64,000 bases of DNA from Leucoraja erinacea (taxonomy: Eukaryota): NCBI RefSeq assembly GCF_028641065.1, contig NC_073395.1:35402001-35466000 (forward strand), read 5' to 3'. Shown here piece by piece: positions 3,696 to 54,000 of this stretch. Each line of letters opens with the position of its first letter. Position 1 is the stretch's first letter. Position numbers and translations under genes: made by a program. Under the pieces are notes generated by a model. It saw nothing but the letters and a program-made list of their open reading frames with translations, searched no databases and had not been told where the DNA came from.

Positions 3696-4735
3696 TAGCA
3701 ATGTTACAAAATTTTGAGATTTAAAAAATCAAGTCTGCAATTTATCCCATCAGATTAAGCATAAAAATAAGTTTAATTTGACACCTAATTCACTTTCATA
3801 TCTCAAGTATTTAAAATGTTATGGCCATTTTCATACTCGGAAATTAGCATCTTGTTCCCTATTGAATTTCTATGGACATAACAAAAAAGCTGTGATCGTG
3901 GACAGTCAAAAGCCCATAACTTTCTTAAAAATTAAGAGAACGGAATGAAATTTTCAGTTATCATAGATTGAAGCATTCTGAAACAAATATAAAATAATCT
4001 TACTTGGATGACCTGAAATTAAAGCATATAATTAGTTAGTTACCTAATTGTAGCTAATTCCAAACTTCAATTACTAGATCTAAACATCTATCCATTACTT
4101 AATAAATGATTAACATTTTTAAATAGCCTAAGTGTCCAAATAATATTCACAAACAATTCACAATAAAACATGATTTTTAAATCTCATTTACATTAATTTA
4201 TAGGCCAAATGGAAGGAATTTAGTGTTTAATTGCTGTAAATTAAAGTCCATTTAAATCAGCTTTCTAGTGGGATCCTGTGAACGCGCTGGTTTAGAACGT
4301 TCACATTGCGGTTGATTTGTGCCCCCAAATGCCCTGAAAAATACTGCGGGATATAATGGGCCCAAAATGAGCTACTCGCAACTTTAAACTTTGTATAAAG
4401 GGATCTTAAGAAACCCTTTTTAATGTAAAAATAAACAGCCTACCTTCTGTTGTCCCTGTATGAGATCTGGCCCGTTGTCGGCGGTCGTGGGTTTAGAGGT
4501 TAATTTTTAACCTACTATAACAAGTAAATAAAGCCCTTAAAACTAATAATAGCTCAAGCGAGGGAATCTTCCAGCGATTTTGCATTAATAATTAACTAGG
4601 CTGAAAAACCTCGATTTGAACAGCCTAGGGAAAATCGCTTTTTAAACCCGCCCCGCTCTAAACGGCGCCAAAATCGCGCACACGGGCTGGGATAGATTTT
4701 CAGCGACGCTTCAGGTACGTTTTGCAACATACCTA
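3696..4735. mobile_element. Non-autonomous DNA transposon with TAG...CTA termini and 7-bp TSD (copy 1)
   Basis: Imperfect TIRs TAGCAATGTTACAAAA / TTTTGCAACATACCTA. TSD TATTAAG at 3689-3695 and 4736-4742. Closely similar second copy at 36119-37157. Confidence 0.85.
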
Positions 4736-4966
4736 TATTAAGTACAATAGATAGAGCAAAGGGGAAGATACAGAGTGCAGGATATAGTTCCCAGCATGTA
4801 GCACATTTCACTGTGCCAGGGTAGATGTGACAAAGTGACAATTACGTGTGTGATTGAAATAATTGAATATTATTGTGCATCATTTCCAAAGACAATGCCG
4901 TCAATGGGGTAGAGGCGAGTTGGACAAAACCCTAGCTTATGGAAGGACTGTTAATTTCCTGTAGCG

Positions 4967-5127
4967 TGTAGGAAAGAACTGCAGATCCTGGTTTAAATCG
5001 AAGGAAGACACAGAATGCTGGAGTAACTCCGCAGGACAGGCAGCATCGTCTGAAGAAGGGTATTGACCCGAAACGTCGCCCATTCCTTCTCTCTGCCTGT
5101 CTCGCTGAGTTACTCCAGCATTTTGTC
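4967..5127 (+). mobile_element. Short Penelope-pLTR-derived foldback element with minimal hammerhead motif
   Basis: 15-bp TSD TAATTTCCTGTAGCG (4952-4966, 5128-5142). Inverted arms AATGCTGGAGTAACTC / GAGTTACTCCAGCATT. Central CTGAAGA-AGGGT-ATTG-ACCC-GAAAC-GTC at 5050-5077. Confidence 0.75.
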
Positions 5128-5312
5128 TAATTTCCTGTAGCGCTCTAGCTTGTCCTTGCTCCCTTTAAATGGCCTCCCTCCTGTCTTCTGGTACCACGCC
5201 TGTGGCAAACGATTATGTAAATTCATCTGCAAATGTCCCTTGCAATAATTTTGATAAAATGCATAAGGACCTTCCATTAGCATGTACGTTTGTTTCTTAT
5301 ACAATAGAATAA

Positions 5313-5540
<228 letters not shown>

Positions 5541-5590
5541 GAAACTACTTCTAGTGCATATAATGTTTATAATGTGCTGCTAGTTATCTA

Positions 5591-7102
5591 CAGTGCATTC
5601 CGAAAGTATTCAGACCTCTTCAATTTTTCCCATTTTGTTACGTTACAGCCTTATTCTAAAATGGATTAAATGTATTTTTTTAATCACCAATCTACACACA
5701 ATAGCCCATAATAAACAAGTGAAAACACGTGTTTAGAAATGTTTGCAAAGAAATAACTGAAATATCACATTTACGTAAGTATCAGACCCTTTGCTCAGTA
5801 CTTTGTGAGGCACCTTTGGCAGTGATTACAGCTTCAAGTCTTCTTGGGTATGACACTACAAGCTTGGCACACCTGTATTTGGATAGTTTCTCCCATTTTT
5901 CTCTGCAGATCCTCTCAAGCTGTCAGGTTGGATGGGGAGTGTTGATGCACAGCTATTTTCAGGTCTCTCCAGAGATGTTCGATCGGGTTCAAGTTTGGGC
6001 TCTGGCTGGGTCACTCAAGTACATTCGGACTTGTCACGAAGCCACTCCTGCGCTGTCTTGGCTGTGTGCTTGGGGTTGTTGTCATGTTGGAAGGTGAACC
6101 TCCGCCCCAGTCTGAGGACTAGAATGTTCTGGAGCAGGTTTTCATCAAGGATCTCTCTGTACTTTGCTCTGTTCATCTTTCCCTTGATCCTGACTAGTCT
6201 CCCAGTTCCTGCCGCTGAAAAACATCCCCATCACCATGCCTCACCGTAGGTCTAGTATTGGCCAGGTGATGAGCGGTGCCTGGTTTCCTCCAGACGTGAC
6301 GCTTGGCATTCAGGCCAAAGAGTTCAATCTTGGTTTCATCAGCCCAGAAAATCGTGTTTCTCATGATCTGAGAGTCCTTTAGGTGTCTTTCTGCAAACTC
6401 CAAGCGGGCTGTCGTGTGCCTTTTACTGAGAAGTGATTTCCGTCTGGCCACTCTACCATAAAGGCCTGCTTGGTGGAATGCTACAGATATAATTGTCCTT
6501 CTGGAAGTTTCTCCCATCTCCACAGAGGAACACTGGAGCTCTGTCAGAGTGACCATCGGGTTCTTGGTCACCTCCCTGACCAAGCCCCTTCTCCCCCAAT
6601 TGCTCAGTTTGGCCGGGCGGCCAGCTCTATGAAGAGTCCTGGTGGTTCCAAAGTTCTTCCATTTAAGAATGACGGAGGCCTGTGTGTTCTTCGGGACCTG
6701 CAATGCTGCAGAAATTTTTTATACCCTTCTCCAGATCTGTGTCTCGACACAATGCTGTCACGGAAGTCTACGGACAATTCCTTTGTCTTCATGGCTTGGT
6801 TTTCGCTTTGACATGCACTATCAACTGTGGGTCCTTATATAGACAGGTGTGTGCCTTTCCAAATCATGTCCAATCAATTTAATTTACCACTGGTGGACTC
6901 CAATCAAGTTGTAGAAACATCTCAAGGATAATCAATGGAAACAGGATGAACCTAAGATTAATTTTGAGTGTTATAGCAAAGGGTCTGAATACTATAAATG
7001 TGATATTTCAGTTATTTCTTTTTAATCAGTTTTAAAACAAGTGTGTAACGTAACAAAATGTAGAAAAAAGTGAGGCGGGCTGAATACTTCCTGAATGCAC
7101 TG
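5591..7102 (-). mobile_element. Tc1/mariner transposon (IR/DR type), defective transposase
   Basis: TA|CAGTGCATTC...GAATGCACTG|TA. Long TIRs with an internal repeat of AGTA(T)TCAGACCC. Frameshifted transposase on - from ATG 6792 (MKTKELSVDFRDSIVSRHRSGEGYKK; GRPAKLS; LYGRVARRKSLLSKRH; FWADETKIELFG). Confidence 0.95.
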
Positions 7103-9553
7103 TAGATCTGATTTTAGGTACTTGGTTAGTATTATTACATCATAGATAAAGTGGAGAGATTAGCAATTAAATAGCATATTTTTGAATCACAGAAAGAGTC
7201 CACTTTTCAATGAAATTTGTCAATTTTCATGTGCCATCATTGATTTCCATTGTTACCCAATTTTAGAAATGATCTTTACTGATAGTCTAAATAAACTGGA
7301 CGCTGCAGGACGTTTTTATAATCATAGAAATTTATGGAACAGTTCGCCATTAGGCCCATAATGTCAATGCCAAACAAAATTAGTGCCATTTAGTTTAGTC
7401 CCAATTCAAAGCTCTGTCTCTCACCTGGTGAGAGATCTTTCTGAGTACTCAAACAGGTACTTTTCCAAAATGAATTTCTGCCTCCGGGTAGAGAGTTTCA
7501 GGACTCATTATTTTTTCTCAATTCCTGCTTCTAGTCCTGCTAATATACTAAATATATGACACTTTGCTATTATCTTCTGCTTTGTCAACGGAAATTGCTT
7601 CTTGCCCAGGCCTCATAAAATTTAATCAGCTCCATTAAAATCAACTACCCTTCACTTTTATTCCAAATAAAACAACCTAGCCAGTCTCTTCTATGAACTC
7701 TTATTCTCCCCCCCCCCCCCCCCCCCCCCCCCCTCAAACCAAGTCTAGCAAATATGTCCTATGATCTGGTGGACACAGCCATACGTGGTATTCTGGCTGT
7801 GGCCTAACTAATGCTTTATGCAGTTCCACAGTGCAGTCTATTTTGAAGAGTATTAATGATACCTTTATTAAGGGGCAAAAATCCAAGATTGTTTTGTCCC
7901 ATCTGTTTACTTGGTTTGTACTGTCCATTCTTTAATCTCTGGAAAAATATTGCATTCTATCTATCGAGCCAGTAATTATCTTCGAATGCTCTTTAAATCT
8001 ACTAAATTGATTAATTGTAAACCAACATCAGAGAAAATTGCAAACAAATTTACTCTCCATGAAATAGGAGAAGTTTAGATACTTCATTAAAACAATTGAA
8101 TTTATTTCTTATTACCAGTCCATCATCTTCCACAAGCACTATTGGTTCTGTACTGACCAAACAGAATCATATTTCCTAACTTTACAGCTTTAATAAAGCT
8201 GTTTGTGAACATTTGAAATGTTTTTTTCAATGCTGTGTGCTACTAAACTGATAAACCCAATGGAGAAAACTGCAATTTTGTGTAAAATGGAAGCTATTAT
8301 GTGAAGATGACCGTTTGTAATGTATTGCATACTTTAACTGTGATATGCTTAAATGAAAATGTAGGCTTCAAGCCTGTGATGTTTACAATGTCTAAAATAT
8401 TATATTCCTACAAAGTGACTTGAGTTTTTCTTGACTTGCAATTTCTGATCAATTTGAGAAGATATTGAAAAACTTTTGCATTTAAGAGTTACATTTTATA
8501 ACTGCACAACTAGCAATATCTAAATAGCTATTTGCATAATAGGAAAGGAAAAATATTCTTGCATTTAAGTGGTGAAATAAGTATGATTAGGATAGTATTT
8601 GAGACATCATCACTGCTGATATCCCCACGGAAGTTGCCTGACCTGTCACTGTTTATATTTCACAATTTTCCAAGTTTTCCATGTATGAGGGATCAAACAG
8701 ACAACCAAACTGAGAAGCACATTTCATGAAGAATGGGCTTTTAAAGCAAAGTAGTTGCTATTAAATGTAACTGGATTAAGCAGTTCCCACTGCCTGGCAT
8801 TTGGCATTTATTTTTATCACATCCATTAAGTGAGCACAGGGAACAATCTTGGAGCAGGCATTTAAATAGAAATTCTGCTCTGGTGATAATGATACTGAAT
8901 TCTCACACATGTTCATGAATTTGATTCATAACATCTGGTACAATCAGTCAATTTGGCGTTTAAATTAAAAAAATGCTGGAAATTCCAGCAGGTCGGGCAA
9001 CATCTTTGGAAAGGGAAACTCAGCAATTTAGGTAAACAATAACATTTTGACAGTACATCAGTTAAATCTGTTTCTCCATAATTTGTGCTGCTGTAATAAA
9101 AGCAACTTACTACCCCCTCAATAATATTCCTATCATCAAGCACACAATTCACCTAAGATGTTAAAGTCCTGCAGCACAGAAGCAGACTCTCAAGCCCACC
9201 AAGGCAGTCAATTGATAAGTACCCAATTTTGCTCTGGATTACATTATCCTGATTTTGCTACTCACTCTGGGCAAGTCATAGTAGCCAAATAATTTACTGC
9301 CTTGCACATCGTTGGGCTGTGGGGAAAAAACTAGCACTGAAGGATGCAGTGCATCCCACAGAAAATTGTGCAAATATGAAACAGGCATCACCAGGAGGCA
9401 GCAACTCCACTAGTAAGGTTTCATTTGCATTGATCAATAAATTTAATTGATCATATTTCTTTCTTTAACTATGAATAGGAACAGTAGGCTAATAACTTTA
9501 TCCCATTCCTATATTCTTACCACAGCTCTGCTGGTAAACTAGATACAGAGTGG

Positions 9554-9758
9554 TAGGAAGGACCTGCAGATGCTGGTTTAAGCCAAAGATAGACACAAAA
9601 TGCTGGAGTAACTCAGCGGGTCAGACAGCATCTCTGGAGAAAAGGAATAGGTGATGTTTCAGAAGAAGAATGTCGACCCGACTTGTCACATTCCTTTTCT
9701 CCAGATGTGCTGTCTGACCTGTTGAGTTACTCCAGCATTTTGTGTCTATCTTCTATTT
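9554..9758 (+). mobile_element. Short Penelope-pLTR-derived foldback element (second TSD-bounded copy)
   Basis: 14-bp TSD TAGATACAGAGTGG (9540-9553, 9759-9772). About 60-bp inverted arms. Same 5' boundary as 4967-5127; hammerhead core is degenerate. Confidence 0.75.
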
Positions 9759-10821
9759 TAGATACAGAGTGGATCAGGTTGATGTGAAGTTGAGAATATT
9801 CAGACATTGCCTACAGGCGGATCAACTCCAATGGCTTAAGGTTAAACTAATGAAATGGTACTCTTCCACATTATGGGACCCGAAATGTCACCGACCGATG
9901 TTCTCCAGAGATGCTGCTTGACCCATTGTATTACTTCAGCACGTGTTTGTTCTTGCAAACTAGCATTTGCAGTTCCTTGTGTCTCTAAACTTCATTATAG
10001 TTGGATGAATAATTGTAAATGTTCAGCGGATCACTAAGAAAAACATCAGTCATTGTACAATTCTGTGCATTTGCCGTGATAAGCTGTGACTTCTCACGTG
10101 CAACATGCACTTTTCAAATATTCTGATTTATTTAACTCCTCGCAAATCATTTCCAGCCTTCCTGCAACAGACTGGGCTCTTCAAAACCATTCTTAACTGT
10201 TTATGTCTAAATAGTTTAGGGATAAATCTGCTTAATAATAGATAACATAATCTCTTGCAATAGATACCTAGCATTTTAAATCCATGTTTCCTGAAATAAG
10301 CTGTTACATAGATAGGTTATTGAGTAAGGATGGGCCTACTTGTTTTTAAATGCATCTAATTTCCATATATCAAATTAGGTTTCAGATCATTGGAAATGCA
10401 AATTCTCATTTGGAAGCTGGAGCCAGCATGAGAAGAATTATGTGGGGTAATGACTAAAATCATAGCAGAACAAGACTACTGGTTTTCCCAACTATCATGA
10501 AGAAATTTACCATCGGGAGGGGAACAAGATGCTAAAGTAATTATATTTAATGCTTATGAATAAATACCTATTCACAGTCCTTAGTTTACAACAAGACAAC
10601 ATTTAATGGTGCTAAATCCCATAAACTCAACAACAAAATGATCAGGTGAGTAAATCTCTTCACCATCTGGTGAGCAAATTCTGTACGATTATCACACGCG
10701 ATGGGATTAATTTTATAAAGCTGATTAGGGAGAATATAGACTGCCTTTGATGAAGAAGAAACATGGAGCAAACCACCACACCTATAAATCTGGCAGGGGA
10801 AGATTATTAACAAATTTTATG

Positions 10822-13812: not shown

Positions 13813-14935
13813 GTACTGTATCAAACAAAAAACCTCGCTGCTCTGTCTGGATCGCTTCAAAGTGAAAACTCACCGGCCTCAAATCTGTTGCTTTTTACAT
13901 TTGTGGCCACAGTCAGGTGGAAAACTATTAATCTCGTCCCTTTTAAGAACCTAATCCTTATTAAGTAGCTTTCAAATAATGTTTTGATGACTATCCGCAG
14001 AGGACGCGAAGTGATTTAAACAGGTGTGCTTTGCCTTAATGAGTCTAACAAAAATATCACATTATTAAGTCGTGTTAGTGCACAAACATTGATGACTTGG
14101 AATGGACAATATATTGAGAAGGACTTTCTGGATGAAACGACACCAAGGTCCTTCTAATGCCAATATATGATGCATTCTTCTTGACAGATAATGATATTTT
14201 TGTATCATTGTATACAAAAATAATTATTTTACTTTACTGAACCGGACAAATCAGATGCAAATAACAAAGTGTTGGAAAAAACTCAGTGGGTCAGGCAGCA
14301 TCTGGAGAGGAAGTGGTGGAATGATGTTTTGGGTTGAGTCCTTCAATACTGCCTGAATCCATCCACACATGCTGTCTGACTCACTGAGTTCCCCCAGCAA
14401 TTTGTTTTTTTTTTTACTCAAGATTCTGCAGAATCAACTTTATGGTATGTTTGAGTAATTGCCAACAAAACTTATTAACTATATATTTTGTGGTCATGGT
14501 TTTAAAAAATGCACTGGGAGCTCACCAGCTGGAGCCATCACAACCAAACCTGGCATTGGAAAACAACCTCTGGAATGTTCTAACCGAGTGTTAAAGTTAC
14601 TAATGGAGTTTTAGTATTATTTTTGTTACAGGTGTTTCTGTCATTTTCAAATGCTGGACATAAGATACAAATTGAGGGGATGCTTTAAGTGGTTGAAGTC
14701 CTAAAGAAGTTCAGAGTGAGAAAGGGCAATACTTGGAACACAAAAGATGGGGAAAATACTAAAGTGTGAGTTAGAAGTCCGAGTGAGGTCAAATGCAGAA
14801 GGTGTTAACAAATGTAGAACATTGGACAGGATGGAATAGCTGAAGATGGACTAGTTATTTTTATCGGGGGTGTTGAAAGTGTTTTTGTTGTTGTTCTGAG
14901 AAGGGCATTGGGAAAAGGGGGAGAGTGAGATGGGT

Positions 14936-16170: not shown

Positions 16171-16382
16171 TTGGAATTATATGAGAACATTAGTTATCGT
16201 GGAGATGGGAGGGAATGTTAACGGCAGTAAAGTAAAACTGGATTCATTAGGAGCACAATGGAAGGCACCTGAATGAAGAGGTTGCAGAGAAAACAAATGT
16301 TTAGGGTTGATCTGTGAACAAAATGTAGCCAGGTGGACCGTGAGAAGAGCGGGATATATTAAAGAACACCATTGAACAGGTA

Positions 16383-16760
16383 GGACACAAAGTGGTGGAG
16401 TAACTCAGTGGGTCAGGTAGCTCCTCTGGATAACAAACAACATTTCGGGTCAAGACCCTTCTTCAGACTGATGGGTGGGGGTAGGAGAATTTGTTTGAAA
16501 CAAAGGCCACAGTAAAAAGGTGTGAGACAGAATTGAAGAGATGTAAATTGCAAAGCTGGAGGGAGGAAAGTAGTGGGAAGAAATAGGTGGGAGTCTAGGT
16601 TGGGCAATGGGGAGGGAAGGGGGGAGAAATAGGGAGGTGTGGGGTCATGGTTAGTGGAGAGCTGGGATAAGCAGGAGATTGCCTAAAATTTGAGAATTTA
16701 CTACTCCTGCCATTGGGTGGTAAGCTAACCAGGTAGAATACAAGCTGCTGTTCCCGGAGC
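16383..16760 (-). mobile_element. Penelope-like element 3' fragment with pLTR
   Basis: Minus strand carries CTGAAGAAGGGTCTTGACCCGAAATG (pLTR/hammerhead-like), next to a purine-rich stretch shared with the other Penelope fragments. Confidence 0.6.
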
Positions 16761-17394
16761 TATCAGAGGTACAAAACTGTTCCAGTCCCATCTTTGCGCA
16801 GAGTTCAATGGTTCAAGTCAGTGAATCTCTACCACTTTCCTCTGGTGATTAGTAACTAGCAACAAAAGCTGGCATTGGCAGTTGTATCTGTATCCCAGGA
16901 TTGAACAAGAAAAATAAGCAGTTGCATCAGACACAAGCTTCAGTTTGGTAATATTTCACTAGTTACTATTAATATATTTGGCCCTTTAAATATAACCACA
17001 AAACAGTCTGGCCCTGGCTCACTGCAGGTGAAAATAAGGGAAATCCAGTTGCCATGTCTGAAGAAGGATCCCGACTCGAAACATCACTTATCCATGTTCT
17101 CTAGAGATGCTGTCTGACAAGCTGAATTATTCTGCATTTTATATTTCTTTGTATTTTTAAAATATTTAGTTGCAAAGAATGGAGCTTGGTTGTTCTGTTT
17201 ACAATTGTTTACTTTATTTGTGCTTTTTAGTTGTGTCTTTGTCTCGGTTGATAATACTCCAGTCTCTGTGTTGTGTTCAAGAACACACATTGCCCCTGCA
17301 TTCTCAAAAGTGTTTTCATTTGCGTAAGATATAAACTAAAGTGGAATGAGAGGCGAGCTCCTAGCAACCTGGCTAACATTTCTCCCATGGGCTA

Positions 17395-17735
17395 AACACA
17401 AAGTGCTGGAGTAACTTTAGTGGGTCAGGCAGTACCTGTGGAGGGAATGAATGGGCAACATTTTAGGTCAGGACCCTTCTTCAGACCAATAATCAAGATT
17501 TCAGTATCAGTAGTTCCTTGTGTCTCATTTTTCCCATGGCCAATGACAAGAAAATAGATCACCTGGCCATTTATTTGAGTTCTATATATTCCTGCAGTAC
17601 AATATTGATGGATTTCAAATGATAATCCATTAGTTCTAATCATGGTTATGTCCGAAGAAGGGTCTCGACACGAAACGTCACCCATTCTTTCTTGTCAGAG
17701 ATGCTGCCTGACCCACTGAGTTATTCCAGCTTCTT
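17395..17735. repeat. Inverted pair of Penelope pLTR-like repeats
   Basis: ACACAAAGTGCTGGAGTAACT... on the left and ...GAGTTATTCCAGCTTCTTGTGT on the right; hammerhead-like GAAGAAGGGTCTCGACACGAAACGTC near 17654-17679. Confidence 0.6.
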
Positions 17736-19249
17736 GTGTCTGTCTAAAGTTGTAATCAGGGTGCAGTTGGCCTTGGGATGCGATATACTTGTAATTGTAA
17801 AACACAAGTTAACCCTTCAAAGTAAGGGGCACAATATTTTGGCTGCAGACCCAGGATTGGAGCTCTTCGAGAAACTTGTCTAGGATGTTAACTTGTCTCT
17901 TTTCTCCATATGAGTCTGGTCTGTGGAATGTTTCCGATATTCTTTGTTTCAAGTTTCCAGCTTTTTCAATATTTCTGTTTGGTCTTTGGTCTCGGAGTTA
18001 GGAATTGTTTTCCCAAAGTTTTACACAATGCTGTTAGGTCCTCACTACAACTATATAAAACTGGTCATGAATGGTCATGAATGGTTTCTAATATTTCACC
18101 CACTTCACTTATTTATTACATTCAGTGTCAGTAATGGAGAAAATATAATTACCGGTATATCAAATGTTGTTATTTCAGTTGAAATTTAATCTGGTAGTTG
18201 TTAGTGTCAATTCTATTTCCAGATTATTCAAAGATCTTGCCCTATCTTATACTATAGGCATTATTTCCTTCTTTGGAGACATTTTGGTCTTGCAATAATA
18301 TGATTAGTTGAATCGCCCCACCAATACAGCAACAATTTATATGTGGGATGTAACAGAGACTCACAATCAATTATTTACGTGGCCAGTATCATGACTGAAT
18401 CTTAACCTGTCCTCTCCTTTCGTGTATGAGATATTCAGATTGATGTTACTGTGCACATACTGGAAGATCTTGCATGTGATGTTCTCAAAATCCGGATGCA
18501 GCATATGAACAATGTAATTATGGGTAGATTATGAATTGCAACTATCATCGTGATTATTAGGAAAACAACATTGACGTAGTTTAAAATGTGAGCATATGTT
18601 CATAACAAAAATCATTTATCATCATGCCTTGTTCAAGCCTGTTTTGGTAATGTTGTGGGTAAATCATACCAGCTATGACGTACCTGCTGCACCTGCGCTG
18701 GGTAATAAAGGAACATTGTTGTCATCCCTGACTTGGTACACTTTTATTTTCAATTATTATTTTCCACTGTAGCCTTCTGGGATTTCACATGTTAGTGCCT
18801 GAATTAATTTGAATTATCCAGTAGGGTTCCGTATTGGGGGGATTTTGGAATTAATGACAGATCGGATTATATTTTACCTCCATTGTTTGGATACCCCTGA
18901 TCTAATTTTCTTATCCTCAAATCTTGTAGGCTTTGTAATTGTTGAATTATGACCTGGGCTGTTTCACCAATAATTTGTGAATTTAATACTCCATTGGCTC
19001 CTGTGACTATTACATTTTTTCAACCTCCTGTTCTAAGTTCTCTGATAATTTTAAATTGCGTCCACTTTTTGCAACTTATCATTCCGTGGGATGCTCTGCT
19101 CCATTTTCTATATCTATTCCTTTGTGATATAATTCCTGTGGCTCTCCGTGAGTTATTATAGACAAACATATATTTGTTGGTCTACACAGTCATCTGGACT
19201 ATACTTTCTCCCAACCTTGCAATAACACCATCAATTTATCCTTCTTTGC

Positions 19250-19800
19250 TGTATCTGCCCCCAAGATGTGGCTTTCACTCCAGGACATCTGAGATGTCAT
19301 CTAGTAAACATGGTTTCTCTCTTGCTGTTGGGGTTGGGTCCATCATCCATGTCACTACTGAGTCTCACAATTCTGTGTTCGCTTCCCACCCCCACCCCCC
19401 CCCCCCCACCCCTTTCAGAGCAAGGATCAAGTTCCCCTGGTCATAGCCTTTCACGCCACAACCTCTGCATCAAACACATAATTTTCTGACATCTCCACCA
19501 ACTGCATCATGATCCCACCACCAGTCACATCTTCCTGTCCCCATCCCTTTTTTGCTTTCACTAGAAACCAATCCCTCTGTAACTGCTTGGAGCTCCCATC
19601 CTTTCCTACCCTAACTGCTTCCTCCCCAGGTTTAGTCGGCAAAGCCGCTGGAGACGTAACACCTGTCGCAATACCACCTCCCTCGCCTCCATCCAGCGAG
19701 GTGACCGATTTGCCAAACACTTGCGCTCGGTCTGCAAAGGCCTGCTGAATTTCTTATTGCTGATAATTATTTTAATTCCCCTTCCTATGGCCAGGCAAGT
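19250..19800 (+). mobile_element. Penelope-like element fragment
   Basis: Homologous to 28380-29035 (QHIILxHFxxLxxDPTTSHIFP-like and RFAKHLRSV motifs); heavily degraded. Confidence 0.65.
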
Positions 19801-19959
19801 GATGGGTCGATATAGGTGAGGAGAGATTTGATCGGCAAATGGTAGGGTAAAGGCTAGAGATAAAAAGAGTGACGAAGAAGCAAAAGAGTGTAAGATAAGA
19901 AGTGAATTAGGAATGAAATTTAAAGCCAGAGGGTTGGATATAAGTGGGAAAGGACGGGT

Positions 19960-20000
<41 letters not shown>

Positions 20001-21179
20001 GAAAGGAGGGGGGGGGGGAGGGGGAAAACGAAAGGTGGGGCAGGAGGGTGGCATAAATGAGTATACATTGAGTTACTCCAGCACTTTGCTTTTTACTCAT
20101 TCTAATATCTGAATTTCCTTATATCTCCTTTATACACTTGTTAGGCTTCCAAATTATATCTCTCTCTTTCCATTGCATTTTATGCAGTTTGTAATTCTAA
20201 CTGTGGTTAGAAAATTTTAAACCAGTTAATTTCTCATTGCAACTTTATTATGCCGACCATTCTAATCAATCTCCTAGGAACGATACAATAATGTTTTTAT
20301 GTTTCCTAGAAAGTTTCCTGATGTCTCCTGGCACAGTTTGACAATGTGTGAGCATGTTAACGAGCCATTCTGCTACGTGATGAAAGCTTTGAATGCAATG
20401 GGACCTGAGTGCATTCTTTGGTTGTTTCTCAGTGGGTTTTGTGGGGATTGTTTACAAGTTGCCTAAAGAAAGGGTGATCTTCTGTACCTGCTGCTTTGCT
20501 GACACCTAAAGCAAAGTTTGACTTGTACCTCTAAATGTGGTGATTGATTCTCTCAATGAACAACAGAGATTATTGGACTGCGTTTCAAAGTATTGCCACT
20601 GGTTACTATGGTAACTGGAAAGATTTTTTTTGCTGATCTTTTGTGCCAAATCCAACAGAAAGTGTTTGTATGTACTCAAGAGCTGTATATCTCAGAACAA
20701 TTTCTTTGCTTCAGAATTACCAAGATAAAATAGATATTTTAGTCCAGTTTATTTGTGTACGAGGTCATTAAAACTAATGAGATTGAAAATGCATCATGGA
20801 ATATTCAAAATTATCTTCAGACCACCCCTTCAAACAAGAAGTCTGCTATTTGTCCTTGTGGATAAAGACTAAAACAAGTCTGGGCAGTATAGTGGGTCTT
20901 GAGGAATAGAACCATGCAGGGCCGGCCTTAAGCCGATTGGACCGATTGCTTTCAATTGGGCCCCGCGCCTTAGGGGGGCCTCGCACTAATGTTCCTTATT
21001 TCGTACAGAAATACAAATTCACTTTGTTAAATAAAGCTTTTTTAAAAAAACATTCGCCATCCGGATTTTTAAAAAATACGATCATGGATAACAACCGTTG
21101 CACGGCCATCAGACACAAACAATTTGTTAACTACTACTGTTAGCACTTGCTAACAGCCAGTAGTTAACAAGTAGTTATA

Positions 21180-21352
21180 CAATATGTCATCAATACATCG
21201 ATCCACATTCCTCAGTAAATGTAATTGTGTTTTGAACAAGTATTAATGACGCTGCGTTCCTTTGAATAAAATTCATGCGGCGTCATTAATACTTGTTCAA
21301 AACACAATTACATTTACTGAGGAATGTAGATCGATGCATTGATGACACATTG
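21180..21352. repeat. Long near-perfect inverted repeat (76-nt arms, 21-nt spacer)
   Basis: 21180-21255 is the reverse complement of 21277-21352 with 4 mismatches. Confidence 0.92.
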
Positions 21353-22613
21353 AGAATTTCTTAAAACTCACCATCATGATTGAGGGCTCCGGACCGCGAG
21401 AAGGGGCTTCTCCTTGGTGTGCAGGTTAGTCATTCACCTACCGCCCATGTTGTGTCTCTCTGTCTTTCGCTCTCTCCCTCCCTCTCTCTCTCGTGCTCTC
21501 TCTCTTCCGCTCCCCATCTCATCTCTCTCTAGCTCTCTCACTCCCTCTCTCTCACCCTGTCGCCTCGGCATTCCCGGAATCATTGACGTTTTGCGGTACA
21601 CAAAAATGCTGGAGAAACTCAGTGGATGAGGCAGCCGCCTTGCCCGCTGAGTTCCTCCAGCACTCTGTGTTTTTTGTTTGGCTCTGAAGTTGAAGGTGGC
21701 TCAGCGGGACAGGCATGAGCTCTGGGGAGAGGGTTGCGTTTCTGGTTGAGACCCTTCTTCAGCCAATCACAAGTACTCTCACCGACGAGAGTCTGTAAGA
21801 AGGGTCTTCCCTCCAGAGTCGCCACGCTGCCTGTCCTGTTGAGTCACTCCAGCTTTATGTCTATCTTCAATTTCAGAGAAACAAAATTTCTCACGGGGGG
21901 CTTATAGCATCTACCCTCCCCCTTCCCAACTAACCCTAGTTCCTAAAACCCATTTCCATCACTGTTCATGTTATACTTATAATGCAGCGTCCAGGCTTGA
22001 AGTGATTCTGTGAAACAAAAAGATAAAGCGCTGGTTTCAGTCCAACAGCAGCCTGAAGCACTTCAGCCTCTTCGCCCTGTGACCAGCTGTTTCAAGTTTT
22101 GTGCTGCTGTTGGACTAAAACCAGCTCTTTATCTTTTTGTTTCACCCCCTGTCCGTCCACATTCATCTCCCTCTCCCCCACCTTCCTCCCTTGGTGCCTG
22201 CTGCTTTGGTGGGTCATACATTGCCTGTTAACCACTGATTTATTTTCAAGTGGTCAGTGCAAAGTCTGCCCTCTTAAAAACTAGTATCGTTGTCAAAAGT
22301 GACTTGCTTCGTGAAAATGGGCATTTGTAAAATTAAACCCCAGTGTCCTCTAAGCTACGTGTTACTGTATTGTTCAATATTCTTGCTAAATGTCATATTA
22401 TCATTTTAATGCTGCGTGTGCTTCAGCATGGGCCATCAATTAGTTATATCGCAGCAGAACATAGTATTAAATCGCAAGCGACTGCAGATGTGCAGATCTT
22501 GAGCAAAAAAAACAAACCGCTAGAGGAATATTGAGTCACACCATTTAGTGAAGCCACCTAACAAAGGGTTGCTCTTTGGAGGCAAATAGTCACTTCCTGA
22601 CTAACTGCTGACT

Positions 22614-28379: not shown

Positions 28380-29035
28380 ATACTGAAAATTGGAGAATTC
28401 ATACCATTCAGCTACCAAAGAGGAGTACAAGGTATTGTTTCTCTAGTTTTGTGTGGCCTCACTCTGGCAATGGAGGAGGTCTACGAAGGAAAGTTCAGTA
28501 TGGGAACGGGAAGAGGAGTTAAAATGGATAGTAATCGTGAGATCCTGTGGGCCTTGGCAGACCAAGCGTAAGTGTTCAGTGAAACAATCACTAAATCCGC
28601 ATGTGGTCTCACCGATGTACAGGCGGCCACATCGGGAACACCGGATGCAGTGGATGAGGTTCGACGAGGTCCATGTGAACTTCTGCCTCATTTGGAAGGA
28701 CTGCTGGGGTCCCTGGATGGTGGTGTGGGAGGACAGATAGGGAGAGTGTTACAACTTATATGGCTGCAGGCCAAAGTACCTGGGCAGGGGATGGTTTGGG
28801 TGGGAAGGGATGAGTGAACCAAGGAGTTGTGGAGGAAATGGCCTCTAGAGGGCAGAAAGAGGTGGGAATGGGAATATGTGACTACTGGTGGGATCACAGT
28901 GGAGATGATGGAAATGTTGGAGGATGATGTGTTGGATGCGGAGGCTGGTGGGGTGCAAGGTGAGGACCAAGGGAACTCTATCCTTGTTGCGTCGGAGATG
29001 TCCTCTTTCGTTAGTAAATGTGGCTTTTCCTCCTG
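28380..29035 (-). mobile_element. Penelope-like element, GIY-YIG endonuclease region
   Basis: FTWTSSNLIHCIRCSRCGRLYIGET...FTEHLR...HFNSSS, preceded by RVPLVLTLHPTSLRIQHIILQHF. Confidence 0.88.
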
Positions 29036-39363: not shown

Positions 39364-39399
39364 GTAAATGAGCTAAATATAATAAAAAGGTTCTACAAA

Positions 39400-39900
39400 T
39401 GCTGGTTGATGCTAAAGATAGGCATAAACTGCTGGAGAAGCTCAGCGGGTCGGGCAGCATCTCTGGAGAAAATGGATAGGGGAAGTGTCGGGTCAAGCGC
39501 TTCTTCAAGCTGATTGAGTGGGGGAGAGAAACTGGACGCAAGAAAAAAAAAAAAACAGGACAAATCGGGGTCGGCAACAGATGACTGCGGGCAAGGAGGT
39601 TCCCTGATAGTCCAATTGTTGGCTAGAGACTGTGAGCGTAAGAGGGATACCTTGTTGCAAATTCAGCGACCGTTTGGCTGAACACTCGCGCTTGGTGTGC
39701 CAAGGGCTACTGCATCTCCTGGGTGCCAAGCACTTTAACTCCTCCAACCAATCCAATACTCAGCTTTTTGTGCTGAGCCTCCTCCATTGCTGGAGTGAGG
39801 CCACTCGAATATTGGAGGTAAAGCATCTCATATTTGGCCGGGGTGGTTTACAGCGCAGTGGTATGAACGTTGAATTTTTCAATTTTGGGTAAGTTCTCCA
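39400..39900. mobile_element. Penelope-like fragments (pLTR plus GIY-YIG C-terminal part)
   Basis: DRLAEHSRLVC...KHFNSSNQS...LEVKHLIF...GMNVEF on +, adjoining an inverted pLTR-like repeat. Confidence 0.7.
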
Positions 39901-40454
39901 AACATCTTCCTCCCCAACCCTCCCTCTTACCCCCCCCCCCCCCCCCATCCCTTTCCTCCACTAAATGTCTGTTAACCCATTCCATGGTTCACAACAAAAT
40001 ATCCTTCTTGGTCCCACACTGTCTCTAACCTGTTAACCTGTCAGCCTATCAGGGAATCTCATTGCCTGAGGTCATTTGTTGTCGGCCTCGGCTTGTCCTG
40101 TTTTTTTTTATCTCACTTTTTGCTAGGGTAGAGATGTCAAATACTAAAGGGTATAGCTTTAAGGTGAGAGGGGGAATATTCAAAGATGTGGGGCAAGGGG
40201 TGCCTGAATTGTGCTGCCTGGGGCAGTGGTGGAAGCAGACCTGATAGTAACATTTAACAAACATTTAGACAAGCATGAAAACAAGCAAAGAATGGAGGGT
40301 CATGGATCATAAGCAGGCAGATATGGTTAGTTTAATTTGGCATCATGTACGGCACAGACATTGTGGGGCCAAAGGGCCTAGTTCGTAATAGTTTGCATGC
40401 GTGTCATTCTTCAAAGCAGCGGTGTGAGGTCACAGAAACCTATAATGACCTAAC

Positions 40455-43400: not shown

Positions 43401-45327
43401 TCAGGGTCCTGCCTACTCTTTTTTATAGAGTTAGAGATCTCTAGGGGTCCCGCACGGGGTACCCATGTGGGGCTTACCTCCTGCCCACTGTGGCTAGTCT
43501 CCACATCCATGTGACTGCTACTGTGAAGGAGCTCCTTTTTTCCCCCCGCTGTTTCCGTCCCCCGTACACACGGGCACTGGTTTGCGGGTTTTCCTCGCCC
43601 TACCGCTGACCGCACCGGTCTTGTATGTAGGTCCACCTCTCCACACGGTCCCGGTACTCACAGGCACCTGTGCTGGCTGCTGTCATGCTGCAGCCACTCG
43701 TACCGGCTTCCTCCAGCGGGGGCTAGCGGGTCCACGCCGTCTCCGTACTTCCAGCGCCATGGACCCATCTAATACTTTAACCAAAGGATTAATAAACAGA
43801 TTTTTATGAAAAAACATAGAAATTAGGTGCAGGAGCAGGCCATTCAGCCCCTCGAGCCTGCACCGCCACTCAATTCAATGGGGTCCGTGGGGTTGTACCC
43901 GATACGTCTGGATTTTGCTGTGTAGGCGGTCAAAACCCGGCTCCAACGCTCTCAGCGCTCCTGGCTGCTCGTTTATCTCAGACCGCTGGGACCGACCCCG
44001 GTACTCACGGTACTGGTCCCTCGCGGTCGTTGCAGCCGGTCAACCCCACTCCAATGCCCTCAGTTCTGGGCACTCCTGCTTATATGGTCCTTAGATAAGG
44101 GACGTATCAGATATTAAAACTGATAATAAACAGATACTATACTTGATCTTAGCCAAAAGGCCAAGAAGCGATCTCTGTAACTAAAAAACCCGCTGGGACC
44201 GACCCCGGTACTCACGGTACTGGTCCCTCGCGGTCGATTGCAGCCAGTCAACTCCACTGCAATGTCCTTAGTTTGTGAGCCTCGGCGCTGGCCGGTAGCG
44301 CTGCTTCAAGCCAGACTCGCTTCCAAAGCGAGACTGGCATACTGGCCGAGAAATGAATTTTCCCCTGGTGCGGGAGCGAAGTCGGGCACAGGTGTTTTCC
44401 CTCTCCGGGAATCGATGTGCCGTTGCTGCTCCTGCCGCTGCCGGCCGCCGTGCCGTTGCTGCTCCTGCCGGCTGCCGTTGCTGCTCCTGCCGGCTGCCTG
44501 CACTCCGCGGTTCTCCCGCCAGCTTTCTGCAGCTTACATGGACCCGGTCCATGTCTGCACCTAAAGGGTAAGTGGAAGGAACGCAGAGTCTCTTACCTGC
44601 TGTTCCCGACTTTCAATTCTCCCGCTGGTGAACGTCGTTCCCTGCGTGTCGGGTTCGAGCCGCTCGGACCGACCCCGGTGTTCACGGGACTGGTCCCTCG
44701 CGGCAGTTCCGCAGTCGGTAAAACCCGGCTGTTCGTAGGGACCCCTTGGACCAACCCCGGTGCTTACCGTTTGAAGAAGGTTTTCGGCCCGAACGTCCCC
44801 AGTTCCTTTGCTCCATTAGTGCCGCTGCACTCGCTGAGCTTTTCCAGCCCTCCTGTGTACCCCCGGTACTTACAGCACTGGTCCCTGCTCTCTGTCCTGC
44901 AGCCTCGGCGCTGGCCGCTAGCGACTGCTCCAAGCCAGTCTCGCTTGAGACTGGCATACGGGACGTCTTTGCTTTGCTTCCCGCCCGGCCGAGAAGTGAA
45001 TTTTGCCGGTGCGGGAGCGAAGTCGGGCACAGGTTTTTCCCCTCCAGGAAACTGGTGCCGTTGCTGCTCCTGCCGGCTGCTCGCACTCCGCGGGTCTCCC
45101 CGCCAGCTTTCCGCAGCCTTCATGGATCAGGTCCATGTCTCCACCTAAAAGGTAAGTAGAAAAAAGGAACGCAGAGTCTCTTACCTGCTGTTCCCGACTT
45201 TCAAATTCTCCCGCTTGGGGAACGTCGTTCCCCCTGTGTGACTTGTTGCAATGCGTGTAGCGATATGACATGCATGCGTTGGAAGCGGGTTCTTCACGTA
45301 GTCACTCACGTGACTCCGAAGTAAAAT
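40455..45327 (-). mobile_element. DIRS-type tyrosine-recombinase retrotransposon, internally deleted and rearranged, in TWF1 intron 5
   Basis: On -: gag-like (VPSVNQCIW..RNQDLKIQK); RT remnant DGGCRIIIDLSTLNTFVQYVHFKMDTL (about 42235-42312); methyltransferase-like GILIVPDWPTQSWY (about 41885-41927); YR (SAINSARSALS; LMALVTAQRVQ; TISRWLK; HSTRAAATS..AGWSS..FQRFY). Perfect 37-bp inverted match 40594-40630 / 45291-45327, plus an adjacent imperfect match to the other end (about 40455-40495): an internal complementary region. Confidence 0.9.
44081..44172 (-). pseudogene. U2 snRNA 5' fragment (about nt 1-90)
   Basis: Minus strand ATCGCTTCTTGGCCTTTTGGCTAAGATCAAGTATAGTATCTGTTTATTATCAGTTTTAATATCTGATACGTCCCTTATCTAAGGACCATATA matches the U2 5' domain. 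It stops before the Sm site and has a substitution in the GTAGTA branch-recognition sequence. Confidence 0.92.
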
Positions 45328-50333: not shown

Positions 50334-52010
50334 ACTACTATGACTGCATCCAGTATGGTTCTCTGTGACAGTTTATTTAAAATCAAGGTATAATCCAATA
50401 GAGGCATTACAAAAACCTTGAAAATCTATAATGTCTGCATGGGTTTCAATCTGCCCTTGCCTAAATGCACATAGCTGAAACTGATGCAACACCTTTGTTA
50501 AATGTAATACAGGTACTTGTATAATGGGAAAATCATTTATTTAGTATCAAACGATTTATGAAGAACCAATGCCTTCATATTAGTTATGATGCTCAGATTA
50601 TTATTTAATTGACTACTGTAATATTCTAATTGCAGATTACAATGTTTTTGTTTTTAAATAGTTTTACATGTTTTTGTTTTTAAATAATTAATTAAGACGT
50701 AATGCCAAACCTGGTCAATAACTTGGATCTCATTTTAATTTGTCTGAAGTTTAGGTTAGACGTAATATTTAATTACTTTTTCAAAATCTCAAATAATGGA
50801 ATATTGTCATGTTTGACATAAATTCAATTCCTTCACATTCCTCAAACATTTTCCATACCATTAGTATGTCAATACTACTTTTAATAGACAACGACCTCAA
50901 TGTTATGAAATGATTGCCTTTTCTGAATTTATTCCTGTTTAGAAAACTGGGTCAAATTAACCCTTCCTCGTTTAGTATTTTAATAACAGTGAGGATAAAA
51001 ATTCAAATATTGGTGATGACTCAATTGAGGAGATGATTTGAAGCAAGGCAGCTCTTTGTCCAAGTTATTATCAGGAATGACCCCTCAAAATGTCCCAGCA
51101 AAGAACTTGAAATATTGGTGACCTTTTCAAAAAGAAATATTCTAATATCAGATTTGCGAGACATGATTTCTCAAGCACAATACGAGCTAAATGATCCCTC
51201 CTGTGATATTGATAATTTTCTCACAGCATCAACTGCACATATGCATAAGACTTGGCAATATTACCATATTTTTGTTAATCAAGTTGCTGCATTGTTTGCC
51301 AGACCCATTAACTTGTACCTTGCACTGGCGTGAGGTCACTTGTGACGTGGGACTCAATTAGGCTAGGTAATTATGAGGTGGAAATAGGGTGTTGGCAACA
51401 ATCTAACGTTGGAAATCACTCACTGGAAATTTGTCATTTCCACTCCCCCCCCCCCCCCCCCCCCCCCCCCCACCACCTTTTTTATATTTACATATTTGTA
51501 TCATTTCCACGGCACATCTTTCTACATCTAATCAGCAGCTGTAATAGAAAGAGATTCTTTAAAGTCTGCCTTCCTCTTGTCCAGCATAGAAGAGGTACCA
51601 GTTACATTCTTTTCACAGAAACCCACTTCTCTTACTATTTTTCTTGCCTTTCACAATGAAAGTCGCAGGATAAAATGAACTATAGTAGCATGGTTAGAAA
51701 CTGCCAAAGTAATGGGAAGTAGAGTGCAGTATAGTAACCTTTTTTAAATGGAAGAATCTAGTTTGGTTAATATTTATTAATGATTTAAAAACTTGGGTGT
51801 ATAGAATTCAATTTGCAAATGACTTACCATACTAAAACAAGGTGAACTAGGGCTTGATATTTTTTATCCATATTGTATTTTATGAGAATATTATTTGGTC
51901 TGAAGTGTGATTAATATTGCACTTGTTAAATAATCAGGTTTAAAATTTTGTTCTGATTACACTTCACCTGTTGCTGTAAAATTCAACTCTGGAATGCAAA
52001 GTAATAGTTA

Positions 52011-53528
52011 AGAGGCTTTCTCACGGGGCGACTTGACGCAAAAGGTAACCAGAATTGAACATCGTGGGAACCTCGTACGATAACCGTACGGCATTCGTGG
52101 ACCATCGTGGACCACCGTGGCGCTGACGGCAGGTACTCGTGTAACTTGTTGACTCGGGAGAAATTTCAAGCAAGCTTGAATTTCTCCAAGAGTGACTTGT
52201 ACACTTGTGGTTGAACATTGAAACATTATATGGACGTAGTGGCCAGTGCGATATCCGTAATAACTCTTGCGTTTACCGTGGGAACTCCTGCGAACGGTGA
52301 ACCCGGAAGCTGGACAGAGGGGACAGAAGGTGAGTAAAAAGGTGGTCTCAATATCGCCAATGGAACATGTGTCCATCGAGGACGTCCCACCTCATTGTGA
52401 TTGTTGGAGAATCTTTTTCACTGGAACACTTGCAGAGATGGCTCCCAGAAAAGCTCAAAGAAAGGGGGTAAAGCATGTCAGAAAGGTTTTTGCCATGCAG
52501 GAGAATGAGGAGGAGACGCAGCAAGAGAGACAGGTGGAGAGGCAACAGGAGATGCCACAGATAACACTGCCTGTGGGCTCCTTGGAGCAGGGAGAGGGTG
52601 AGCAAGGTGGATTTTCAGATTGCCTCCCCAGTAGCCGTTGTAGGAATAGCCTCAACAGATATATAAGGGAAGATGGCAGAAGGTAAGGCCATATAACTTC
52701 ACCAGGGAACAAGAGGGTGAACTTGTAGAATGGTACCAATTCAACAAAATTCTTTACGATAAATCCAGAGAGGATTACAGAAACAGGGAGAAAAAACAGA
52801 ACCTGCTGGAGACGAAGGCTGCGGAGTATCCCGGGTGCTCATGTGAGTATATATAACGATATATTAGTACATCAACAGGAAAACCATTTAATGTTATCCA
52901 TGATTTAAAAACATACATTGCTATTGATGTAAAAGTACTGTTTTTAACTTAAACCTCTCTTATAAGTGTGTCTGTGCCCTGCAGCTGCAAAGTAAAAAAG
53001 TCGCAGACAGCTTTTACACGCTCTGTGTTTGAAGTTGGAATCATGAATCATATTGTCCAAATAGAGGTCTCCGTTGAAAGATGGGCTTCACCCAGTGAGA
53101 CTTCCCCTTAATTCTCTTTTTAATTAATCTCACCCTTCTGCCTTCACGCAAGCGTCCTCGATTCACATAGAGGGCTGCTGCAAACACCGCGTCAATGAAA
53201 AACACCACCATCCTGTACACGAAACTACTTAGTATAGGCATGTCTCCAAATGAGCCAATTCAACCAAGGGAGGATATTTATAGTGTGTGAAAAAAAAAGT
53301 GGCATCATTTGTGCCACGTGATGATTTAACAACACTTCACAGTTCACAATGTTCATTCAAGATTTAACGGGAAAGCTCAGGAGACGGACAAGTCACTTGC
53401 ACAAATAACAGAAATGCCGAGTACCCGTGGGAACTCTTCATCTACGTTATATCGTGTGATATCGTGCTAGACCACGACCACTTCACTCTGGTTACATCTT
53501 GCGTCAAGTCTCTTGGGGGAAAGCCCCA
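52011..53528. mobile_element. PIF/Harbinger deletion derivative retaining the 5' parts of both genes
   Basis: TTA TSD (52008-52010, 53529-53531). TIRs of about 45 bp (GGCTTTC...GACTTGACGCAA..GTAACCAGA). + strand: MAPRKAQ... then MADF/Myb-like FTREQEGELVEWYQFNKILYDKSREDYRNREKKQNLL. - strand: transposase N-terminus HWVKPIFQRRPLFGQYDS. Confidence 0.85.
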
Positions 53529-54000
53529 TTACTCGGGTAGCAATTGTTATACGATTTATAAATCAGTAAATATTGCACATCAAATTCTGATATATGAAAA
53601 TTAAAACACCAAAGCTAGCAACTTTTTTATGTTTCAATTTTAAAAGAATTGTATCAAAGTAAGACGGTAGAGCTATCCATGGTTTATGGTAATCTGGCAT
53701 GGCTGGTCTGGTACCCATGAATAAAAACATTTCCTCAATTAATTATTCACTGGTCAATGTCTCATTTCTCTTGATGCGGCATGGTTTTAGGAGAATGAAA
53801 ATTCTTAACTTCATTTAGGCTCATACTAAATCACTAATTTCTTTGTGCAGATTAAATTAATTGTGCAGGTTGCACATATAATTATGTCTATCTGGCTATG
53901 ATACTTCTTAACGCTCAAGAGTGTTATTTGTCATGCAGAAGAACAATGACATTCTTAGTTTTACAGGCACATTAGATGCAACAAAAAACAATGAATATGC

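Follow-up and report, generated by a model that had tools for sequence, protein, structure and literature searches.

The question raised by this locus is whether a short hairpin-forming insert that carries a hammerhead ribozyme motif represents a mobile family in its own right or the product of insertion by a larger element. The former was proposed in the initial annotation of the window (the whole stretch of 64,000 nucleotides analysed here). Our analysis favours the latter, with a probability of roughly 0.85: the insert is best explained as two head-to-head 5'-truncated pLTR pieces of a GIY-YIG Penelope-like element (PLE), built in one insertion event, and the 161-base hairpin is probably not a separate mobile RNA family. 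The components of this insert, referred to as copy 1, are as follows.

4952-4966, plus strand: left copy of the 15-bp TSD, matching 5128-5142 at 15/15 positions.
4967-5047, minus strand: inverted arm, a 5'-truncated pLTR 3' end with tail (alignment; 67/80 identical to the left arm of copy 2).
5048-5127, plus strand: direct arm, a stretch of pLTR that opens 2 nt ahead of the ribozyme core and runs as far as the tailless end (alignment, loose read ends).
5048-5079, plus strand: minimal type I hammerhead motif (sequence and pattern search, features as in the excerpt of PMC4209133).
5128-5142, plus strand: right copy of the TSD (15/15 match).

The insert (4967-5127) is 161 bp long, and both its perfect TSD and its inverted arms (5010-5043 and 5093-5126, 88% complementary) were confirmed as first annotated. 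Its RNA fold reaches -71 kcal/mol (z -6.7). A tail of about 40 nt (4967 to about 5008) is present in the left arm only, the right arm having none, and the overhang beyond the paired arms amounts to about 43 nt here and 32 nt in copy 2 (9554-9758). The left, inverted arm is without the ribozyme core, and the direct arm bears a private deletion of about 8 nt at 5092/5093, recognized by loose ends before 5093. At the centre (5040-5057), the family continuation of the left arm, TCTGGAGA, is closely like the start of the right arm, TCTGAAGA, a likeness that could possibly have served as microhomology for the join of the arms.

Reads of the family end sharply at 4966, beyond which 449-501 contigs per run carry unlike, AT-rich flanks. 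The right junction was found in contigs of organisms A, B and C with 24-28 element letters, which is under the 31-letter bar, and its presence in all three suggests an old shared insertion. Copy 1 landed beside older repeats, since its left flank holds two other high-depth repeats (4700-4797 and 4892-4950). Elsewhere in the vicinity, 5586-7107 is a DNA transposon of the Tc1/mariner type, which has inverted ends and whose transposase (Pfam HTH_Tnp_Tc3_2) is broken.

The motif in copy 1, located in a pLTR and with a complete core, is a Penelope-type minimal hammerhead, as had been claimed. The core letters stand where the initial annotation had placed them: CTGAAGA at 5050-5056, GAAA at 5070-5073, the palindrome ACGT at 5073-5076 and GTC ending at 5077, with the 4-bp stem II formed by 5058-5061 and 5066-5069. 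An extra A at 5057 separates CTGAAGA from stem II, so that the minimal-hammerhead features between 5050 and 5077 are complete (CUGANGA, extra base, G10.1-C11.1, GAAA, palindromic 15.2-16.2 and NUH). The cut is predicted between 5077 and 5078. Stem I does consist of two pairs, one of them a G-U pair (5049.5078 U-G and 5048-5079 G-C), and has a predicted probability of at most 0.03. The 28-letter core pattern matched copy 1 with 0 mismatches and five other places in the window with 1-3, the core thus being intact in one of the six; 100 shuffles gave 0 matches.

The Rfam hammerhead covariance models, which had been put forward as a check, matched neither the window (E<=5) nor the segment 4940-5160 (E<=10). 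Rfam models of miRNA hairpins did align over the foldback, with low scores far below their cut-offs, and these were dismissed as generic hairpin matches. The family differences listed within 5048-5081 are located in loop II and 3' of the cut site, and changes in stem II among the window copies mostly break pairs. In the full copy 1 insert, stem II has a predicted probability of 0.00 and a ribozyme-like fold is predicted to cost about 6 kcal/mol. These predictions, together with the absence of loop 3 and the presence of a single sense core, make it unlikely that the copy 1 ribozyme would work alone.

Related sequences are spread over the window:

9540-9772, plus strand: second TSD-flanked inverted pair (copy 2), insert 9554-9758, centre near 9660/9661 (TSD search, alignment).
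14260-14432, minus strand: third, older inverted pair with the tail on one arm; TSD search negative (profile search).
16378-16756, minus strand: 5'-truncated direct PLE end comprising GIY-YIG C-terminus, 3' UTR, hammerhead (16439-16466) and pLTR (peptide comparison, core pattern).
17377-17539, minus strand: inverted pair with a tail-only inverted arm of another tail subfamily, TSD 13/14, insert 17391-17526 (TSD and profile search).
17632-17762, plus strand: single direct arm from the ribozyme edge, TSD 13/15, insert 17649-17745 (TSD search).
21596-21877, no strand assigned: two neighbouring degenerate inverted pairs, 21596-21684 and 21696-21877 (profile search).
28412-29018, minus strand: 5'-truncated PLE ORF remnant of the GIY-YIG region with in-frame stops (phmmer, tblastn).
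39380-40114, no strand assigned: long inverted pair, its right end followed by another repeat (inverted-repeat and protein comparison).

A profile search of the window gave 27 matches at E<=1, 18 of them training sequences, and 23 lay below 1e-4; five base-shuffled windows yielded 0-2 matches each. All of the further copies annotated near 14270 to 39420 were recovered, but most are single arms and not foldbacks. Seven head-to-head pairs were recognized, starting at 4967, 9554, 14260, 17391, 21596, 21696 and 39380, the remainder being single arms. In a mismatch-tolerant search, TSD scores of at least 9 were obtained for 4 of 13 units (copies 1 and 2, 17391-17526 and 17649-17745) compared with 3 of 300 random intervals, and the nine units at which no TSD was found are mostly the more decayed ones. 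Copy 2 has a TSD matching at 14/14 positions and a left end within 1-2 nt of that of copy 1, as reported for it. Its centre and its right end are others than those of copy 1. Its core is broken (C-A-GAAGA, GAAA replaced, stem II disrupted) and is paired in the predicted fold with its own inverted arm.

Several other sequences lie among these copies. The stretch 19420-20110 is a PLE remnant with a sense ORF end, an antisense G-rich 3' UTR and a sense pLTR end with decayed tail, an order that reads as a three-part inversion. Two near-perfect hairpins at 21180-21352 and 22010-22145 (arms of 76 and 43 nt, 95% complementary) are unrelated to the pLTR and possibly MITE-like. A weak pLTR/hammerhead-like match at 44769-44849 (E 1.8e-5), within an unrelated GC-rich stretch, is of doubtful status. 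Close to it, on the minus strand, 44068-44172 matches the 5' half of U2 snRNA (77.7 bits) and is likely a retrocopy. Broken LTR-retrotransposon-like coding pieces in several frames, presumably protease, reverse transcriptase and integrase-like, occupy 54222-57934 on the minus strand.

The parent of the arms can be traced through two of the copies listed. In 16378-16756 the repeat comes after a pyrimidine-rich stretch and a peptide identical at 13/25 positions to the C-terminus of P0001 (pairwise E 2e-06). In 39380-40114 a minus-strand arm made up of tail, pLTR, hammerhead and 3' UTR meets, head-to-head, a direct arm whose start lies within the GIY-YIG domain (39659-39886), and both arms carry the same 3' UTR (83% over 64 nt). 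The ORF remnant gave 861 proteins at E<=0.001 when its part 28446-28748 was used in phmmer, the three best matches being named from stingray, whale shark and skate, which makes a cartilaginous fish the likely host. Five long homologues (816-891 aa) were checked, of which all five have a C-terminal GIY-YIG domain and three an RVT_1 domain, several of these below the Pfam cut-off. Word-based protein searches with the GIY-YIG piece gave no matches and a full HMMER scan recognized it; Pfam gave no recognition of the window's own GIY-YIG pieces. Judged from sequence, the repeat in both arms of copy 1 is the pLTR of a GIY-YIG PLE, because 16378-16756 and 39380-40114 join ORF end, 3' UTR and hammerhead in cis and because the homologues combine RVT_1 with GIY-YIG. 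The claim that GIY-YIG Penelope elements are present in the window holds in part: they are there, but only as 5'-truncated remnants with stops, and tblastn found no Penelope reverse transcriptase part in the window. No pLTR was found beside the remnant at 28412-29018.

If the foldback were copied as a unit, its copies would share one centre and both ends. The copies differ in centre and in right end; no two of the seven window pairs have the same centre, and at least two tail subfamilies are involved. At two diagnostic sites the arms agree within copy 1 and within copy 2 and the copies differ, so that variants sort by element and not by arm side, which is the pattern that a separate template for each pair would give.

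Four public sequencing runs, three of DNA and one of RNA, were aligned to 4700-5400. About 52,000-54,000 contigs per DNA run aligned, and the summed depth on the insert was 2e6-1.6e7 against about 23-90 on the right flank; this depth is not a copy number, and the pLTR family is very large. Behind 5047 the sequence goes on as ordinary pLTR in 671-774 contigs per DNA run and in 2316 RNA reads, and before 5048 it is mixed in 544-637 contigs and in 1918 RNA reads (agreement 0.32-0.37). None of the 24 pieces listed, out of about 160,000 from the three DNA runs, crosses the copy 1 centre at 5047|5048. Other centres were seen in contigs, with 4986, 4993 or 5002 joined to 5048 (1-3 contigs each). The joints are known from 15 listed of 271, in short-read contigs that break at repeats anyway, and no empty-site joint was among these 15. 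The RNA run consists of fragmented polyA RNA of another organism (D), was read to 6% and cannot show small or circular RNA; its reads lie about equally on both strands, with no pile of molecule ends among those listed.

Retrozymes would be expected as head-to-tail arrays with at least two consecutive complete hammerheads, and in the window no such tandem of the unit exists. The tandem-repeat analysis gave 34 rows, and no pLTR copy falls within any of them; the term retrozyme-like is not supported for the copies seen here. Head-to-tail joins from 5126 to 5048, across a shared GTCT, did occur in 22, 14 and 15 contigs of the three DNA runs, and these are candidate tandem, retrozyme-like units of about 90 bp elsewhere in the sequenced genomes.

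A further view of how such pairs arise was provided by a pattern scan of metagenomes and genomes, which returned 81 loci (L001-L081) that share the core but lie in unrelated, AT-rich sequence. Apart from the 29-nt core, these scans yielded nothing of the window's own family, and the 81 loci were for that reason used only as a control. They belong to an apparently distant animal PLE family with AT-rich sequence, in which the core and the stem II letters are those of the window's intact copy (the control having been chosen by that pattern) and stem I is longer than that of copy 1, with at least 3 pairs. One of them, L081, comes from a contig binned with a prokaryote genome, likely through host contamination. 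The longer control loci encode the same endonuclease region, which ends about 100 nt upstream of the core.

Sixteen of the 81 control loci were dropped as duplicates, 21 of the remaining 65 have an antisense piece upstream and 15 were examined; L003, L006, L035, L053, L064 and L066 were omitted from the TSD count, their antisense piece being distant or shared. The 15 inverted loci have 15 different centres, and in 13 of them the tail is on a single arm. Direct repeats of 11-14 nt flank 9 of the 15, and 10 nt was reached in only 2 of 210 cross-pairs. From the sequences of this unrelated family, all 15 of whose centres differ, the inverted-pair build is a general PLE product. L006, L035, L066 and L061 share an inverted pLTR piece together with 1-1.5 kb of non-coding upstream DNA; the first three differ in their 3' flank, and L061 has the 3' flank of L013. 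Here a centre was apparently recopied with flanking DNA, or the contigs are chimeras.

The foldback is thus likely to have been made anew at each insertion, given the seven differing centres in the window, the break of the reads at the copy 1 centre and the different centres of the 15 control loci examined. A non-autonomous retrozyme-like foldback RNA that is transcribed, cleaves itself and is mobilised whole through retrotransposition by PLE proteins in trans would account for the nearly identical left ends of two TSD-flanked foldbacks, for a stable hairpin with its core intact in copy 1 and for the recopied inverted piece in the four control loci. The shared left end, though, follows from the fixed end of the tail. 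Centre and right end are different in every window pair, the arm variants group by element, family reads break off at the copy 1 centre, the copy 2 core is broken and paired to its own arm, and stem II of copy 1 is predicted not to form in the fold of the full insert; with one sense core per foldback there is also no dimer in cis. The claim of a discrete hairpin RNA family copied as a unit is therefore not supported, and we consider such a family very improbable.

A MITE-like DNA element, or a later inversion or deletion within a longer insert, could likewise produce inverted arms, and the private internal deletion in copy 1 would be in keeping with rearrangement. The arms are not terminal, however, as a tail of 32-43 nt protrudes on one side; the TSDs are 14-15 bp long; both arms are pLTR tied to a GIY-YIG ORF; and inserts of an unrelated PLE family are built in the same way. 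An origin of this kind is scarcely credible. The idea that the copies are mere pLTR debris, entertained as a fallback in the initial annotation, comes closer, but debris of this sort is flanked by TSDs, every piece having been inserted in its own right. The TSDs of copies 1 and 2 (15/15 and 14/14) point, as had been suggested, to target-primed retrotransposition by a GIY-YIG PLE protein.

For the preferred reading, a PLE insertion of two head-to-head pLTR pieces, the following course may be proposed. The PLE protein would cut both DNA strands about 15 nt apart, and reverse transcription would be primed from both free 3' ends. Of two internal start sites in the RNA, one cDNA would use the tail-bearing and the other the tailless one, and the two cDNAs would halt after about 80-110 nt and then be joined head to head. 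The top strand rightwards from 4967 and the bottom strand leftwards from 5127 both read as cDNA from the repeat's 3' ends. Since the two arms cover overlapping stretches of the RNA, the template must be present twice, as a pair of RNAs or as the 5' and 3' repeats within a single transcript. The hammerhead would be a passenger from the parent that decays in inserted copies; if it works at all, it would do so in the RNA of the parent, either dimerised or assisted by protein.

The excerpts of PMC11167929 describe an anole PLE protein, studied in purified form, that both cuts the two strands and extends them, has two internal start sites bounding the tail and an AT-rich target preference, and needs no ribozyme cleavage, the anole ribozyme itself cleaving only with protein. 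The two-primer step for inverted inserts is extrapolated by analogy from that other PLE clade. Speaking against the preferred reading are the non-random 5' ends of the arms described below, which fit a short dedicated template, the head-to-tail joins in 14-22 contigs per DNA run, which imply rare tandem units elsewhere, and the inverted piece shared by four control loci, whose centre was apparently recopied.

The 5' ends of 22 arms were scored by hand on decayed copies, with the match at 44769-44849 left out as doubtful. In ten arms the end lies downstream of the first core base by 15-58 nt, in another ten it lies at -3 to +2, and two arms run on into the 3' UTR, so that 10 of the 12 arms that reach the core stop at its edge (crude hazard test, p ~1e-9). 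Most pLTR arms are 80-110 nt long. In the same hand scoring, the edge-starting arms are nearly all tailless (about 1 of 10 with a full tail), and about 7 of the 12 others are tailed. The pile-up could reflect a fixed RNA start, a splice point, a structural stall or a length limit of about 90 nt on the cDNA.

A tentative refinement of the preferred reading is that the arms were copied from a short linear RNA of about 90-130 nt starting at the ribozyme edge, the foldback still being built at insertion; the source would be the 5' leader of a PLE transcript, with priming at the start site within that leader, or else a short derivative resembling a SINE. Besides the pile-up itself, the TSD at 17649 abuts the ribozyme edge within 3 nt, which also led us to reject a captured host exon upstream of that copy, and the head-to-tail joins restart at 5048. 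In the two run-on copies the edge is immediately preceded by a pyrimidine tract and TCAG, which we take to resemble both a 3' splice site and an initiator. The excerpt of PMC4209133 adds that the D. virilis Penelope intron ends at helix I. Against a short RNA, arms are mostly 80-110 nt long whatever their start, and a length limit or a structural stall would give the same pile. The control ends are also spread: of 43 ends, 13 lie no more than 29 nt upstream of the core, 4 lie at -79 (reference with inverted piece) and 26 range from -40 to beyond -500.

It is a possible but doubtful proposition that, in these fish, the hammerhead 5' edge is the exact point at which Penelope RNA starts or is spliced and that the reverse transcriptase often primes in the 5' leader and not at the 3' site. 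If true, the genome would be flooded with ribozyme-headed mini-copies of about 90 nt, which would explain the solo minimal hammerheads of animal genomes, and rare head-to-tail joins restarting at the same base would supply raw material for retrozymes. Should the pile-up at the ribozyme edge hold genome-wide, it would mark the RNA start or splice point and suggest where solo hammerheads and retrozyme units come from, an origin open to testing. The copy 1 locus itself is ordinary, one decayed copy of a very large repeat family. Its value is as a clean natural record of a PLE insertion, with two primed ends, a one-sided tail and a long TSD, whose mechanism is partly worked out.

The architecture of an inverted truncated copy with tail, TSD and minimal hammerhead is already published. 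The excerpts seen describe for PLEs an inverted 5'-truncated copy with a 30-40-bp tail at one end (PMC8557442), an inverted pLTR with a 31-bp tail and an 8-10-bp TSD (PMC3846280) and inverted repeats that vary in size by copy (PMC2377424), and inverted truncated copies, tail and TSD also appear in PMC8969392. Searches, from which subscription literature is mostly absent, found no paper on hammerhead ribozyme, Penelope and cartilaginous fish together and nothing specific on truncated, non-autonomous or palindromic PLE inserts.

Compared with the endonuclease-positive PLE insertions in the excerpts of PMC3846280, PMC8557442 and PMC2377424, the window copies have the same head-to-head copy, 30-40-nt tail at one end, TSD, variable arms, 5' truncation and parent with C-terminal GIY-YIG. 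They differ in being only about 160-205 bp long with no coding part, in TSDs of 14-15 bp, longer than the 8-10 bp given in the rotifer excerpts, and in the pile-up of direct arms at the ribozyme edge, a feature that does not appear in those excerpts.

Metazoan PLE minimal hammerheads, mostly scattered single motifs in pLTRs with some opposite-strand pairs, share with copy 1 the type I core, the extra base before stem II, G10.1-C11.1, the palindromic 15.2-16.2 without loop 3 and the pLTR location (excerpt of PMC4209133, in which cartilaginous fish are unnamed). Unlike the motifs of that account, copy 1 has a stem II of 4 bp and a stem I of only 2 bp; helix I has 4-5 bp in schistosome families and 2 bp in D. 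virilis.

Non-LTR retrozymes resemble the present copies in being non-coding, with a type I hammerhead, PLE-pLTR kinship and TSDs of more than 4 bp (excerpts of PMC7229834 and bioRxiv 10.64898/2026.07.22.740005, the latter covering one chondrichthyan genome). In these excerpts, retrozymes are tandem repeats of head-to-tail units, each with a complete hammerhead, that yield small circular RNAs, whereas copy 1 is one head-to-head pair with one minimal core. The copy 1 locus is therefore not a retrozyme and works like any PLE insertion.
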